Virus record (IMG/VR): IMGVR_UViG_3300032289_001255
Location: 17,432-81,431 of that record
DNA from: a virus
Lineage: Duplodnaviria; Caudoviricetes
DNA: 64,000 nt
Reading direction: 5' to 3' (one strand)
How positions within the stretch are numbered: position 1 is the first letter of the stretch; each line of letters opens with the position of its first letter. The translations under genes and the position numbers were made by a program. The notes beneath the pieces are model-generated. The model was not told the origin of the DNA. It saw only the letters and a list, made by a program, of their open reading frames with translations, and did not search any database. Of this stretch, positions 9,945-39,688 are shown in pieces.

Positions 9945-10586
9945 ATGACTATAATTGGAGTATCAGGATACGCTCGTAGTGGTAAAGATTTATTTACAAC
10001 GGTTGCTCAAACAGTTCTAAAAGAACATAAACTTAAATCTGAAAAGTTTGCTCTTGCTTATGAACTTAAAAATGACTTAAAAAGTCTTATTAAAGACAAG
10101 ACGGGTATAGATATTTTTACAGAAAAAACGGAGGAGAAGAATATTATTAGACCATTATTAGTAGCTTATGGCGATGTAATGCGTAAAACTAGTGAAGGTA
10201 CATATTGGACTAATAAAGTTGCACAACGTATACTTAAAAGTAAAGTTGATGTTGTGTTTATAACTGATATTCGATACGATGTTTATCCAGAAGACGAATG
10301 TACTTGGTTACGTAATAAAATGAATGGTAAATTGGTTCATATTACCAAGTTTAAACGTGGAACAGTACCACAGGCTAAAAGATTTAGCAAAGATAAAATT
10401 GTTAAGATATATGATGCTGCTCCAAACGACCATGAGTTATTAAATAACCCCAAAGTAAAAGCAAAAGCTAATTATGCTTTTGAATGGGAAGATTATAGTG
10501 ATAAGTTAAATAGTACTTCATTAGAAGATAGTCCATATATCAGAGAAAAAGTAATAGAAGCTCTAAAAGCAATTAACGTAATTTAA
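9945..10586 (+). CDS. Deoxynucleoside monophosphate kinase (T4 gp1-like)
   Basis: IIGVSGYARSGKD P-loop, FALAYELK, RPLLVAYG, VFITDIRY. Confidence 0.8.
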   Translation: MTIIGVSGYARSGKDLFTTVAQTVLKEHKLKSEKFALAYELKNDLKSLIKDKTGIDIFTEKTEEKNIIRPLLVAYGDVMRKTSEGTYWTNKVAQRILKSKVDVVFITDIRYDVYPEDECTWLRNKMNGKLVHITKFKRGTVPQAKRFSKDKIVKIYDAAPNDHELLNNPKVKAKANYAFEWEDYSDKLNSTSLEDSPYIREKVIEALKAINVI

Positions 10587-10854
10587 TTGTCTTTATTACG
10601 TGATTACTACCATAAGAGAATATAATTTCATTGTCGGTAGTTTTTGTACTAAAATAGGTTATTAAATCGGAGGCATGCGATGATACGAAGTTGATATATA
10701 ACGTATTACATTCTTCTTGCTTCTGATTTTTTCTTTGTTTCTGACAGTTGCAGATTTTATTTAATCCGGTTAGACAGTCTTTTAATCTATCTATTGAAAC
10801 AATATGATCAGATCCTACTAAATTAATAAGTGCTTGATAATTTCCTATATTCAT
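10573..10854 (-). CDS. Hypothetical protein
   Basis: ATG 10854 overlaps the stop of the upstream gene (ATGA coupling); contains ICNC. Confidence 0.55.
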   Translation of the reverse strand: MNIGNYQALINLVGSDHIVSIDRLKDCLTGLNKICNCQKQRKNQKQEECNTLYINFVSSHASDLITYFSTKTTDNEIIFSYGSNHVIKTIKLR

Positions 10855-11228
10855 AACAGTTTCCTTATAATTAAATAAATAGTTAAAGAGCAAATATAGT
10901 TAATTGGCAACATTAAAAAAGAAAACCATTGTTGATATCCAAATAATAATGTTAGTATGTTTACCCCAATCAAAGTCGTCCAAAAACACAAACATATCGG
11001 ACAACTAAGTAATTTAGTTAAATAACTTGGGTAGTTTTCATATAAAAAGTTGGGATAAGTAGACATAACATCTACTTCTAATTTGTATTTCTCAAACTCT
11101 GGTATTTTTAATAAATTACGCAGGTTGGTTAGTTTTGAGATGGTTTGAACTATATCACTGTCAAACCAAACTACCATTATAAACGTGGTATAAAATATAA
11201 GCGGTATATTAAAATCTGTTAGATTCAT
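10851..11228 (-). CDS. DUF1360-like membrane protein
   Basis: KLLSCPICLCFW motif flanked by hydrophobic helices. Confidence 0.55.
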   Translation of the reverse strand: MNLTDFNIPLIFYTTFIMVVWFDSDIVQTISKLTNLRNLLKIPEFEKYKLEVDVMSTYPNFLYENYPSYLTKLLSCPICLCFWTTLIGVNILTLLFGYQQWFSFLMLPINYICSLTIYLIIRKLL

Positions 11229-12430
11229 TTTGTTAATTGATTTTTGTACCAATCTTCGTTGAGATCGATTAAACTTTTACTGTACGTATTTAAATTATTT
11301 ATCTTTACTTTAAAGATGTCATATTCTAATTCACCTACAACACCACTGTCTTCTAGTATTAATTGCAACATATTAAAGAATTCAAAACTTTGATTTGTTA
11401 ATTTAATAGCGTCAAATTCAATAATAATATCATTTGTTTTTCGATCTTCGTATCTCTTTAATTTTTTACTGAGATCAAATTTAGTATTTTTTTGTTCGGC
11501 TTGAATATAACGTTCATATGGAACATCTGTATAGATGGCATCACACCATGGTTCTAATAGTGCTAACTTGTATTCGTCACAATTTCTAACCACAAATCCC
11601 ACGTTATATCTATTTGGAACAATTGGTTTCATCGTGTCATTGTGTTTAACAAAATGTCCCCATTTACGAATAAAGTTTCTGGCACTACGGTTGTTTTGCG
11701 CTAACCATTCGTCGCTTTCTTTACCTACTGTGGTCAATGTAGGATTGTATCTACTGCCTCTACAGGTCATATGATATACACAACCTTCCCATGTTTGTAC
11801 AAACTTATAACCTTTTAATAGAAAACGGTTGAATATATCGCTGTCTTCTTTGCTTTGAGGAGCATATAGATCGTCATGACCTCCAATAGATTGAAAATCG
11901 CTCTTATAAAGGGCCCATGGCGCAAAGATTCCTTCTGTGGTTTTATCTTTTCTGGTCAAACGGGTATCATTGAACCATTTCAATAAAGCAGCTTCATTAA
12001 ACTCTTCTGGCTCGGTACCAAATGCTTGTACGATCTTTTCTGGACCGGGAGGATGTAGAGGTGGTTCAATGCGAGTTAGACTGACGATTGTGCCTGGTTG
12101 AATATATTTTTCTACATATTTATCGAAGTTAGGACATGCGTACATATCAGCGTGGTAGATCATTACCACATCGTTAGTAGCTACTTCATTTATAAGACGA
12201 TCATATAGAATTGTGTGACCCAATCTGGTTGGACCTTCGTTACGGATAAATTTGAAGTGTGGATCTTTTTCGGCTGTTTCTTTACACCATTCCAATGTAC
12301 CGTCATTACTAAAGTCGTCTGCAACACAGATTTCATGTTCTTTATGACTTAAATTTTTACGAATAGCTTCGTAACTCCATTTAAGATATTTTAGGTTATT
12401 TCTGCTTGGTTGAATAAAACTTATTTTCAT
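11225..12430 (-). CDS. Glycosyltransferase family 2
   Basis: ISFIQPSRN, CVADDFSNDGT, MIYHADMY, KEDSDIFNRF, VYHMTCRGSR. Confidence 0.88.
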   Translation of the reverse strand: MKISFIQPSRNNLKYLKWSYEAIRKNLSHKEHEICVADDFSNDGTLEWCKETAEKDPHFKFIRNEGPTRLGHTILYDRLINEVATNDVVMIYHADMYACPNFDKYVEKYIQPGTIVSLTRIEPPLHPPGPEKIVQAFGTEPEEFNEAALLKWFNDTRLTRKDKTTEGIFAPWALYKSDFQSIGGHDDLYAPQSKEDSDIFNRFLLKGYKFVQTWEGCVYHMTCRGSRYNPTLTTVGKESDEWLAQNNRSARNFIRKWGHFVKHNDTMKPIVPNRYNVGFVVRNCDEYKLALLEPWCDAIYTDVPYERYIQAEQKNTKFDLSKKLKRYEDRKTNDIIIEFDAIKLTNQSFEFFNMLQLILEDSGVVGELEYDIFKVKINNLNTYSKSLIDLNEDWYKNQLTK

Positions 12431-12431
12431 A

Positions 12432-37961: not shown

Positions 37962-38923
37962 GAAATAGTCTGCTTAATATTTTCTAAATTTACAACGTGT
38001 AAATCAAACCCCAATTTATCATTAGGTAATGATTTAATATCACAACCATCTTCAGTAAAAATGTCAAATGTTTTAACTGGATTAAAATTATTTAATGTGA
38101 AGTCCATGGCTTTAATAAACTGATTACACATGTTTATACTATTAATTCCACCTTCATTCATTGCCCATCTACGACCTTCTAATCCATATTGTTCACGTTT
38201 ATTACTTCCAACCAAATGCCAATAAGCAATTGCATCAGCAATATCAGTATAATTAGTTAGATCATCCATGATATATGGAGTAGGAGGGCTTCCTTGAAGA
38301 TTTTGAACTTTGGTCCAAATTGGTTTCGCCCATACGCCATGTTTCTTGTATCTACCTGTACTATTGGTACCAAATTCAAGATTAAATTCTACCGGTTTGC
38401 CATCATCTGTAACAATACCCAACTGATCTTGTAAACCGCCTGTTACTGTAGCAATAACCGGAGTACCACACATAATACTTTCAGCGATACTTAGACCAAA
38501 TCCTTCATTTGAACTAACATTAACGGTAACATCTGATAGATTGTAGAATGCACACATTTCATCCGGACTTCTACGAGATTCATCCAATACCACTTTATAC
38601 TCCGGACAAACAGCTTGAACTGTTGCTACAAGATCTGTACCGGCCTCACATACCTTATCTGTATGCATAATCAATGCACATTTCTTTGCTTTTTCTTGAT
38701 CAATAGAAGCACAAAATGATTTAAATGCTAAAATTAGATTTGCTGGATGTTTACGATGTGCATTTCTACTATTGAATGCTACGATAAAATTGTATTCACC
38801 ATCACCAAGTAAGTCCTTCTTTAATTTAGCTATAGAAGAATCTCCTTTTGGAAGTGGTTTAAATTCGTCACTGTTAATACCATGCGGTACTAAGTGTAAT
38901 AGATGTTTTCCTTTTACTGGCAT
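37958..38923 (-). CDS. GT4-like glycosyltransferase, C-terminal part of a split gene
   Basis: VPHGIN, NSRNAHRK, SSNEGFGLSIAESIMCGTPVI, TGGLQDQ; strong AAGGAG 10 nt upstream of the ATG. Confidence 0.82.
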   Translation of the reverse strand: MPVKGKHLLHLVPHGINSDEFKPLPKGDSSIAKLKKDLLGDGEYNFIVAFNSRNAHRKHPANLILAFKSFCASIDQEKAKKCALIMHTDKVCEAGTDLVATVQAVCPEYKVVLDESRRSPDEMCAFYNLSDVTVNVSSNEGFGLSIAESIMCGTPVIATVTGGLQDQLGIVTDDGKPVEFNLEFGTNSTGRYKKHGVWAKPIWTKVQNLQGSPPTPYIMDDLTNYTDIADAIAYWHLVGSNKREQYGLEGRRWAMNEGGINSINMCNQFIKAMDFTLNNFNPVKTFDIFTEDGCDIKSLPNDKLGFDLHVVNLENIKQTIS

Positions 38924-38924
38924 A

Positions 38925-39476
38925 TTAAATGTTCTCCTTTATTAAATTACCGTTGTTGTCAAAATCACCATAGATACTGGTACAATTTTCCGGTCCTAAT
39001 ACTTGTTCAATAATATTATGAGTTTGTTTGCTTATTGAAAATAAAGCATCACAACTTTTATAAAACGGTTTATTCCACATCGGGTATGGTAAATCGTCCC
39101 ATATTGTTAAATATGTCAGAGGTATTTTGCTGCGGATCTGATGTTCGATATTATATAACCAACCCCAAAACCGTGGATCAGTGAAGTGCATAATTGCATC
39201 AGGTTTTTCTATAGCAATGATCTGGTATAAAATATCTTCATCTCCATAACCATCTACTGGATATAATCTAAGGTAATTATCAGATCTACCATTCAACTTA
39301 TCACATGCGTCTTTCATGTCCACAACTTTGCCGCCCTCTGGATGTTTAATGGCGCCTGCAATTTGCACCCAGTCATAGTGATGAAGAGTGCCTAATACGA
39401 GTTCTCGACTCATTGTAGCCACACCACTATGCATTCTTAAATCATCACTCAATAATAGTATCTTTTTCTTTTTCAT
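38925..39476 (-). CDS. GT4-like glycosyltransferase, N-terminal part of a split gene
   Basis: KILLLSDDLRMHSGVATMSRE, DAIMHFTDPRFW, IWDDLPYP, FSISKQT; ends 1 nt before the C-part ORF. Confidence 0.8.
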   Translation of the reverse strand: MKKKKILLLSDDLRMHSGVATMSRELVLGTLHHYDWVQIAGAIKHPEGGKVVDMKDACDKLNGRSDNYLRLYPVDGYGDEDILYQIIAIEKPDAIMHFTDPRFWGWLYNIEHQIRSKIPLTYLTIWDDLPYPMWNKPFYKSCDALFSISKQTHNIIEQVLGPENCTSIYGDFDNNGNLIKENI

Positions 39477-39688
39477 TTAGATTCCTTTGATAATGAAAAT
39501 GGAGCATTAAAACTTAACTTAGTAGAAATACTTTCGCTAATTTCTGTTTGAAATTTAGCGTCTATCAAATACTTTTCAAGACACTTATTTACAAAGTCTT
39601 GGAAAGATATTTTTCCTCGTATATTCAGTTCTTTAAACTGATTATATAATTCTTGATTAAGTTTTACTGTTGTAACAAATTGATCCAT
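39473..39688 (-). CDS. Small ribbon-helix-helix-like protein
   Basis: FVTTVKL (beta) NQELYNQFKEL (helix) ISFQDFVNKCLEKYL (helix). Confidence 0.55.
   Translation of the reverse strand: MDQFVTTVKLNQELYNQFKELNIRGKISFQDFVNKCLEKYLIDAKFQTEISESISTKLSFNAPFSLSKESK

Follow-up and report, generated by a model that had tools for sequence, protein, structure and literature searches.

What would a tailed phage build with an almost unbroken run of glycosyltransferase (GT) and sugar-tailoring genes, and on which acceptor? The question is raised by a 64,000-nt stretch of virus DNA (Duplodnaviria; Caudoviricetes; positions 17,432 to 81,431 of IMG/VR record IMGVR_UViG_3300032289_001255), hereafter the window, to which all coordinates refer. 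The window is AT-rich (GC content of 0.26–0.36), and its main block consists of 33 successive open reading frames (ORFs) of at least 100 aa, all on the minus strand (10573–39476), together with three small ORFs, with the run reaching 39688. The 33 ORFs account for 98.4% of the span, 25 of their 32 junctions overlap or leave a gap of at most 6 nt, and both large gaps are filled by small ORFs (22894–23190, 98 aa; 34300–34563, 87 aa). This bears out the near-uninterrupted minus-strand run of overlapping or abutting ORFs described in a first-pass annotation made from the sequence alone. The block is limited by a deoxynucleoside monophosphate (dNMP) kinase gene ending at 10586 and by a PD-(D/E)XK nuclease gene (39732–40622, minus strand; Pfam PF12705, E 2e-22), and the run in fact begins upstream of 39688 with this same-strand nuclease gene, which is a conserved neighbour.

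The replication genes around the block form a T4-like backbone, for which Pfam identified a ribonucleotide reductase small subunit, the gp62 and gp44 clamp-loader subunits and a family B polymerase (PolB), next to a CobS-like AAA protein, UvdE, the dNMP kinase, the nuclease and a lysozyme-containing protein. No tRNA genes were found in the window, and no integrase was seen in the Pfam scans of its ORFs. PolB has 43 relatives in IMG/VR (38–100% identity), and its closest isolate is Microcystis phage Mel-JY01 (41%). One relative (G001; 295,831 bp) is a complete genome according to CheckV and was the only one that could be searched over its whole record; it is syntenic with the window on both sides of the block and carries a T4 gp23-type capsid gene. 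Moreover, each junction of the block recurs in viral contigs from many metagenomes (left, at least 23; right, at least 31), always on the same strand, while the complete 296-kb genome contains both and a sister contig is 99.5–100% identical across both. The island is thus genuine phage DNA, as the first-pass annotation had supposed, and the mis-assembled bacterial capsule locus that it had named among its refuting cases is dismissed.

Comparison with the relatives (whose loci are labelled L001, L069 and so on) revealed the main structural point, which the first-pass annotation had missed: in this uncultured T4-like jumbo phage, a hypervariable interior is replaced within a slot of fixed position, making the locus a fixed-slot island. 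The distance from the dNMP kinase to PolB ranges from 18.8 to 31.1 kb across 13 contigs, and the five loci that are whole have variable interiors of 4.1, 4.7, 8.2, 21.0 and 24.1 kb, with the strand remaining constant. The 21 kb that fill the slot in G001 show no BLAST similarity to the 24 kb that fill it in the window. The 409 island ORFs of the relatives fall into 91 protein clusters, arranged in 19 distinct gene orders among 32 right-side (promoter-proximal) segments and in 16 among 25 left-side (distal) segments.

Insertions/deletions (indels) relative to L069 and L072 coincide exactly with gene or cassette borders, either comprising a GT9-like gene, a 147-aa ORF, a C-methyltransferase and a short-chain dehydrogenase/reductase (SDR) gene together (12496–15875) or a carbamoyltransferase gene alone (23200–24758). 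Against the sister contig, patches of 73–90% identity occur at 17.0–20.6, 32.0–34.0, 45.0–47.5 and 50.0–51.0 kb in an otherwise near-identical genome; they hold mostly sugar-related genes, although the patch at 45.0–47.5 kb also takes in gp44 and its neighbour. The cassettes of the relatives encode other sugar pathways, including ten epimerases/dehydratases, RmlC/RmlD, GDP-mannose 4,6-dehydratase (GMD), a PseB-like enzyme and Glf, as well as DegT, WbqC, FkbM, a C-methyltransferase and a B12-radical SAM enzyme. A megablast search of the island against cultured phages gave no match.

Four GTs, all on the minus strand, frame this interior and are conserved. The first is a GT4 (37958–39476) split into an N domain of 183 aa (38925–39476) and a C domain of 321 aa (37958–38923; Pfam GT1, 43.8 bits); at least 26 loci have it as two ORFs, whereas it is fused (493–496 aa) in the more distant L035 and L041. 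The second, a GT4-like GT-B enzyme of 445 aa (35903–37240; phrog_2170, E 3e-8; hhalign 100% to the ORFs at 46458 and 61361), is present in 35 loci, and the adjoining GT2 in 31. In most relatives this third framing gene is uninterrupted and encodes 213–222 aa; in the window it is divided into an N part (35386–35901; Pfam GT2, 65.7 bits) and an 87-aa C piece read from the sequence (34300–34563) by a 270-aa HNH-like insert (34550–35362), which is confined to the window, L027, L010 and L014 and looks like a mobile endonuclease invading a gene. The fourth is a distal GT2 of 401 aa (11225–12430; Pfam GT2, 46 bits), found at the distal end of 23 of the 25 left-side loci. Beyond it lie two small conserved terminal ORFs (10573–11252, minus strand) of 133 aa, with two hydrophobic segments, and of 106 aa; the former is kept in at least 23 loci and in G001.

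The framing genes also connect this lineage to two cultured phages, namely vB_FspM_immuto of Flavobacterium and Mel-JY01, which were isolated on hosts of two phyla (Bacteroidota and Cyanobacteriota, respectively). In immuto, the order is nuclease, small ORF, fused GT4, GT4-like gene, GT2, amino-sugar genes with a methyltransferase, and terminal GT2. Its fused GT4 (gp181) is 57% and 39% identical to the two halves in the window, gp180 is 39% identical to the GT4-like protein, and gp169 matches the distal GT2 over its full length (49%). Mel-JY01 shares its split GT4 (55% and 34%) and its GT4-like protein (40%) with the window, and its cluster further holds GT-A and methyltransferase genes and, at its end, a GT that is related only weakly to the distal GT2 (23%). 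The three clusters thus share the order of nuclease, small ORF, GT4, GT4-like gene, GT2, tailoring genes with a methyltransferase, and terminal GT2, with the nuclease gene in the same place in both isolates and the 66-aa leader ORF of the window (39490–39688, minus strand; read from the sequence) having an equivalently placed 60-aa counterpart in immuto. They differ in size (about 10.8 kb for immuto, about 6 kb for Mel-JY01 and 28 kb for the window), in the GT4 (fused in immuto, split in the other two) and in their interior, which carries amino-dideoxyhexose genes in immuto and genes for other sugars in the window.

The enzymatic repertoire was established by Pfam and extended by profile and fold comparisons (ORFs are named here by their lower coordinate). 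Over the whole window, Pfam identified three GT2, GT4/GT1, two GT61, GT8, a CgeB-like Glyco_trans_1_2, GT6 and Fringe. Within the block, six GTs were assigned by Pfam (GT2 at 11225, 31232 and 35386; GT61 at 29122; Glyco_trans_1_2 at 30345; GT4 at 37958) and five more by profile or fold (15883, 19408, 20063, 35903 and 18425), yielding 11 well-supported GTs plus three moderately supported ones (12432, 17478 and 31915). Outside the block there are six by Pfam (two GT4, GT61, GT6, GT8 and a Fringe-like one), one by PHROG and hhalign (61361) and a weak match (51542). All the families named in the first-pass annotation (GT2, GT4, GT8, GT61 and CgeB-like, with methyl- and carbamoyltransferases and nucleotide-sugar genes) were recovered by Pfam, and its impression of a large number of GTs held, although the total of 18–22 is slightly lower than the approximately 25 it had counted. 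Together with about 14 sugar-nucleotide and tailoring enzymes, these assignments agree with its view that donor synthesis, many GTs and decoration are combined in one place.

Several of the 15 ORFs without a Pfam match were resolved by the profile and fold methods. The three GT8-like proteins (15883, 19408 and 20063) matched the GT8 ORF at 53822 in hhalign (97.6%, E of about 3e-12) and have a DxD-type motif in their consensus, while a PDB profile search with this family gave weak glycogenin matches only. The AlphaFold2 model of 18425 (pLDDT 92.6) has a GT-A fold, with TarP, LH3, COLGALT1, Mnn9 and Mimivirus R699 among its Foldseek matches (E of about 1e-8); its family has 1525 metagenomic members, with a Pfam domain in none of the best 120 listed, and a homologue in cultured phages was not found. 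The model of 12432 (pLDDT 77) has a GT-B fold, and its top eight Foldseek matches are GT9 heptosyltransferases (WaaF/WaaC, E 3e-5). Support for 17478 came from a weak BshA match in the PDB profile search (E 0.0023), and 31915 is a CgeB-type lead (PF13524 within its metagenomic family; hhalign 50%); the PDB profile search gave nothing for the families of 18425, 31915 and 12432. PHROGs returned no match for 15 of the 20 ORFs scanned, NCBIfam returned only generic names under its thresholds, and the hhalign comparison covered a subset of the ORFs.

No polytopic membrane protein is encoded in the window or among the 409 island ORFs of the relatives, and no Wzx/Wzy-type membrane protein in the complete 296-kb genome of G001. 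The island therefore lacks a priming transferase, flippase, polymerase or exporter. In the window and the relatives' ORFs, an initiating polyprenyl-phosphate glycosyl(phospho)transferase was found neither by Pfam nor as a polytopic ORF; a flippase with polymerase, an ABC exporter and a chain-length regulator were absent from the window, and G001 holds none of that size or topology. A membrane system such as the gtrABC operons of serotype-converting prophages encode (GtrA flippase, GtrB bactoprenol GT and membrane Gtr(type)) was not found either, the sole membrane candidate being the 133-aa terminal protein. The self-contained O-antigen- or capsule-like pathway including polymerisation that had been proposed is not supported by these results. 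Since the island proteins are all soluble, nucleotide sugars would serve directly as donors for a glycan made in the cytoplasm.

The block would be transcribed as one leftward unit, running from the nuclease gene through the small leader ORF into about 36 tightly coupled genes. A weak sigma70-like site (40656–40629, minus strand; 9 of 12 matches) lies by the nuclease gene. A gap of 52 nt separates the nuclease gene from the divergent, rightward replication genes and contains, on the plus strand, a perfect sigma70 consensus (TTGACA, 16 nt, TATAAT; 40616–40643). The T4 late-promoter motif TATAAATA was not enriched (17 sites versus 19.7 expected) and sigma70-like sites were no more frequent than in shuffled sequences.

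Which acceptor, then, could receive such a glycan? As the framing GTs are kept across phages of Cyanobacteriota and Bacteroidota, the acceptor is more likely to be supplied by the phage than by the host, and a phage-supplied acceptor favours a virion protein, as in mycobacteriophages and giant viruses. Cytoplasmic glycosylation of an acceptor carried by the phage, probably a virion protein, is accordingly the reading we prefer, at roughly even chances. The four framing GTs, vertically inherited, might prime and cap a conserved core, and the swappable cassettes, which pair enzymes for rare-sugar synthesis and tailoring with GTs of their own, might add variable outer sugars. Their chemistry could include methylation of the C- and O-types, O-carbamoylation, oxidation of the uronate type and activation by kinase, phosphatase and nucleotidyltransferase. 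Built on a phage-borne acceptor, for which a virion protein is the likeliest candidate, the glycan would form a strain-specific 'serotype'. That particles indeed differ in this way, with four conserved GTs priming a phage protein, cassettes adding rare sugars that are branched, methylated or carbamoylated and the coat diversifying as O-antigens do, we propose more tentatively, at somewhat less than even chances; the selection behind such diversification might come, for example, from decoys or defences at the host surface, from grazers or from the stickiness of particles. Precedents for self-glycosylation exist in the glycans on mycobacteriophage capsid and tail-tube proteins (as cited in PMC12619734) and in the clade-specific fibril-glycan clusters of Megavirinae (PMC10117803).

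Several points weigh against a virion acceptor. A glycan has been demonstrated on no particle of this lineage. The island adjoins replication rather than structural genes, unlike the mycobacteriophage GTs, and in G001 the capsid gene lies about 100 kb from it. The only promoter-like sites are of the sigma70 type and would suggest that expression is early or middle and not late, albeit from a scan that performed no better than shuffles. The GT4 RfaG-like, GT8, GT9-like and GT2 families are, besides, those by which the lipopolysaccharide (LPS) core is built on lipid A, a process that takes place at the inner leaflet and needs no dedicated flippase, and the missing export genes therefore do not exclude a host lipid as acceptor. 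Finally, the structural-gene and hydroxymethylase evidence comes from the relative G001 and not from a complete genome of the window phage, and some 11 ORFs remain without an assignment.

The main rival explanation builds on the same families. The soluble GTs would act at the inner membrane face on lipid A-core (of the lipooligosaccharide type) or on an undecaprenyl-linked intermediate, to be exported by the host's MsbA, Wzx or ABC transporter, and the changed surface would block superinfection, grazing or adsorption of progeny to debris. The GT9 heptosyltransferase fold of 12432, the RfaG-like annotation of immuto gp180, the four GT8-type genes and an SDR whose best NCBIfam match is an ADP-heptose 6-epimerase (under the cut-off) all point in this direction; it is also the standard interpretation of the cyanomyophage and pelagimyophage clusters (PMC1079782, PMC7029224, PMC12801897), and promoters of the sigma70 type would be in keeping with an early role. 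Nevertheless, lipid A-core structures differ between host phyla, so that a host-specific acceptor is hard to reconcile with framing GTs shared by phages of Cyanobacteriota and Bacteroidota. Moreover, the island holds no priming or membrane enzyme whatever, a strictly lytic T4-like phage would have little time to profit from a rebuilt outer membrane, and the swapping of cassettes at strain level is not obviously accounted for. We therefore regard a host-envelope acceptor as unlikely, albeit as a serious contender.

Glycosylation of modified bases in the phage DNA as a protection against restriction, in the manner of T4 and certain other phages, is far less probable still. The island does lie in a region of replication and nucleotide metabolism, with a dUTPase-like gene inside it and the dNMP kinase at its border, and DNA glycans with several sugars have been described (Pyle et al. 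2024, as cited in PMC12619734). However, a thymidylate-synthase-family hydroxymethylase (PF00303) was not found in the complete G001, where the controls were positive, and no ORF in the window gave a Pfam match to the T4 alpha- or beta-glucosyltransferase families. In immuto, which has the homologous module, nucleosides analysed by liquid chromatography with ultraviolet and tandem mass spectrometric detection (LC-UV-MS/MS) were dA, dC, dT and fdPreQ1 only (doi 10.1101/2023.04.13.536721), and twenty GTs with C-methyl and carbamoyl tailoring go far beyond any known DNA glycan. The DNA target that the first-pass annotation had listed among its options is thus disfavoured. The idea of a bacterial capsule or O-antigen locus chimerically joined to a phage contig draws on the bacterial look of the gene content and on an island GC content (0.26–0.32) slightly under that of the flanks (0.32–0.36), but deserves next to no credence in view of the recurrent junctions, the sister contig that is near-identical through both of them, the absence of the membrane genes common to all bacterial loci of that type, and the viral nearest relatives of the orphan families.

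In terms of gene content, the minus-strand block reads as follows. Between the framing GT4 and the GT4-like gene lies the dUTPase-like gene (37242–37961; Pfam PF00692; phrog_135, E 1e-29), a nucleotide-metabolism gene amid the sugar operon. Downstream of the framing GT2, a first variable cassette (29122–34303), with genes that each occur in only 3–22 loci, comprises a 258-aa ORF without a known function, a methyltransferase (32960–33520), the CgeB-like candidate (31915–32925), a GT2 (31232–31918), the Glyco_trans_1_2 gene (30345–31268) and a GT61 (29122–30348), with the methyltransferase and the last three assigned by Pfam. The second cassette (20857–29161; Pfam, NCBIfam) appears devoted to sugar activation and tailoring and comprises a gene for a PRK-like kinase with an N-terminal domain for which DUF7796 is a lead only (27695–29161), a TylF O-methyltransferase, two ORFs without a known function, a class II aldolase/epimerase, the NodU-like O-carbamoyltransferase that constitutes the single-gene indel (23200–24758), a 98-aa HAD-like ORF with a DxDxT motif (22894–23190), a phrog_34507 protein and a tandem sugar-1-phosphate nucleotidyltransferase.

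A semi-conserved module (15883–20881), present in 20–26 loci, follows with two GT8-like genes (20063–20881 and 19408–20070), the GT-A gene (18425–19411), the GT4-like gene (17478–18428), a nucleoside diphosphate (NDP)-sugar dehydrogenase-like gene (16643–17491; TIGR03026, 162 bits, under the cut-off) and a third GT8-like gene (15883–16641). The dehydrogenase-like protein (282 aa) has the N-terminal and central domains but not the C-terminal nucleotide-sugar-binding domain; its length is kept in 21 loci, and it is therefore not a recent truncation. The last cassette (12432–15879), which would make a branched sugar and includes the larger of the exact indels, holds an SDR (14977–15879) and an NDP-hexose C-methyltransferase (13779–14984), both by Pfam, the 147-aa ORF without a known function and the GT9-like GT-B gene (12432–13355), and abuts the distal GT2.

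Two satellites that had been noted at 46.5–56.8 and 61.4–64 kb are real as well. The former (46458–56807, both strands; Pfam) is a second variable island, with, in order, a GT4, a 120-aa ORF, a radical SAM gene, a GT61 (minus), a methyltransferase, an ORF without a known function, a weak GT1 (minus), another ORF without a known function, a GT6 (minus), a GT8 (minus), a Fringe-like gene, a methyltransferase and a GT4. The distance from gp44 to the homologue of the ORF at 56825 is 3.4–7.3 kb in 14 relatives versus 10.4 kb in the window. In G001, the clamp-loader-adjacent GT4 lies within an 871-aa ORF (9332–11947 of that genome, minus strand), a longer fused form of 46458–47558. According to NCBIfam, the radical SAM protein at 47937 is not QueE-like. 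The third cluster contains a GT4-like gene (61361–62722, plus; phrog_2170, E 1e-12; hhalign 100% with 35903), a NifU gene (63025–63423, minus) and a GMD gene running from 63420 to beyond the end of the window (minus; Pfam GDP_Man_Dehyd, E 3e-50). The NifU/IscU-like protein is 75–82% identical to proteins from Verrucomicrobiota metagenome-assembled genomes (Pedosphaera, Limisphaerales), with the next groups at 66% or less, and offers a possible lead to a host in that phylum, for which a phage GC content of about 30% looks low.

Other differences between relatives lie outside these clusters. Next to UvdE lies an isolated DruA-like gene (6779–7963, plus; Pfam PF14236, E 2e-19), and L069, L072 and L066 have 1.3–2.1 kb extra between the two (junction at 7957–7960 in the window). 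The gene for a small PAS-domain protein with one N-terminal hydrophobic segment (1277–1831, plus) is an exact indel, with 1278–1792 missing from L066 and L072. A 656-aa protein (57558–59528, plus) has an N-terminal DUF5661 and a weak intein-splicing match over residues 195–416; 58100–58819 is exactly missing in L001, L009 and L015, consistent with an intein that is present here and absent from those three loci.

For two decades, the sugar clusters of T4-like phages from aquatic habitats have borne the untested label 'LPS genes'. The organisation described here constrains the answer, with framing enzymes kept across host phyla, an interior exchanged between near-identical strains and no export machinery. 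Through it, this lineage, itself uncultured, is also tied to two phage–host pairs in culture (immuto and Flavobacterium sp. LMO8; Mel-JY01 and Microcystis), in which the target can be addressed by routine biochemistry. If the glycan proves to sit on the particle, phage 'serotypes' would constitute a new axis of phage diversity, and the islands a source of uncharacterised GT families, the family of 18425 alone having over 1500 metagenomic members, with no Pfam domain among the best 120 listed.

The kind of system is already known, contrary to the suggestion that it was undescribed. P-SSM2 carries 24 'LPS genes' in two clusters (PMC1079782), pelagimyophages have GT-rich hypervariable regions (PMC7029224), S-SCSM2R has 13 GTs, described as possibly the highest number in a marine phage (PMC12801897), and GTs are a common class in huge phages. 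With these cyanomyophage and pelagimyophage clusters the window island shares a T4-like aquatic myophage backbone and clustered soluble GTs with NDP-sugar epimerases, dehydratases and dehydrogenases that vary between relatives, and it has the features expected of a member of that type. It is nonetheless larger (18–22 GTs in 64 kb versus 13 in S-SCSM2R), lies beside PolB and the clamp loader instead of in the tail-fibre region, is framed by four conserved GTs and shows cassette indels that are exact, unlike those clusters, and belongs to a different lineage, its PolB being at most 29% identical to that of cyanomyophages. What is new is, first, the framed organisation with swapped cassettes beside the replisome genes and, second, the connection to systems in culture. 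Moraphages have four core GT groups (PMC12619734).

The mycobacteriophages of the Che8/Corndog type (Freeman et al. 2023) use soluble phage GTs on their own capsid and tail-tube proteins, which is the mechanism proposed here. They have only one to four GTs, which lie by structural genes, and neither pathways for donor synthesis nor swapping of cassettes; their GTs have no sequence relationship to those of the window, and their glycan has been demonstrated, whereas that of the window is a predicted one. The fibril clusters of Megavirinae and the capsid glycosylation of chloroviruses likewise rely on host-independent cytoplasmic synthesis of rare, bacterial-like sugars and on GTs, with clade-specific cluster content (PMC10117803), and a Mimivirus GT (R699) is among the structural matches of the GT-A enzyme 18425. 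These, however, are viruses of eukaryotes with no shared backbone, and their variation lies between clades, whereas in the lineage described here it separates near-identical strains.

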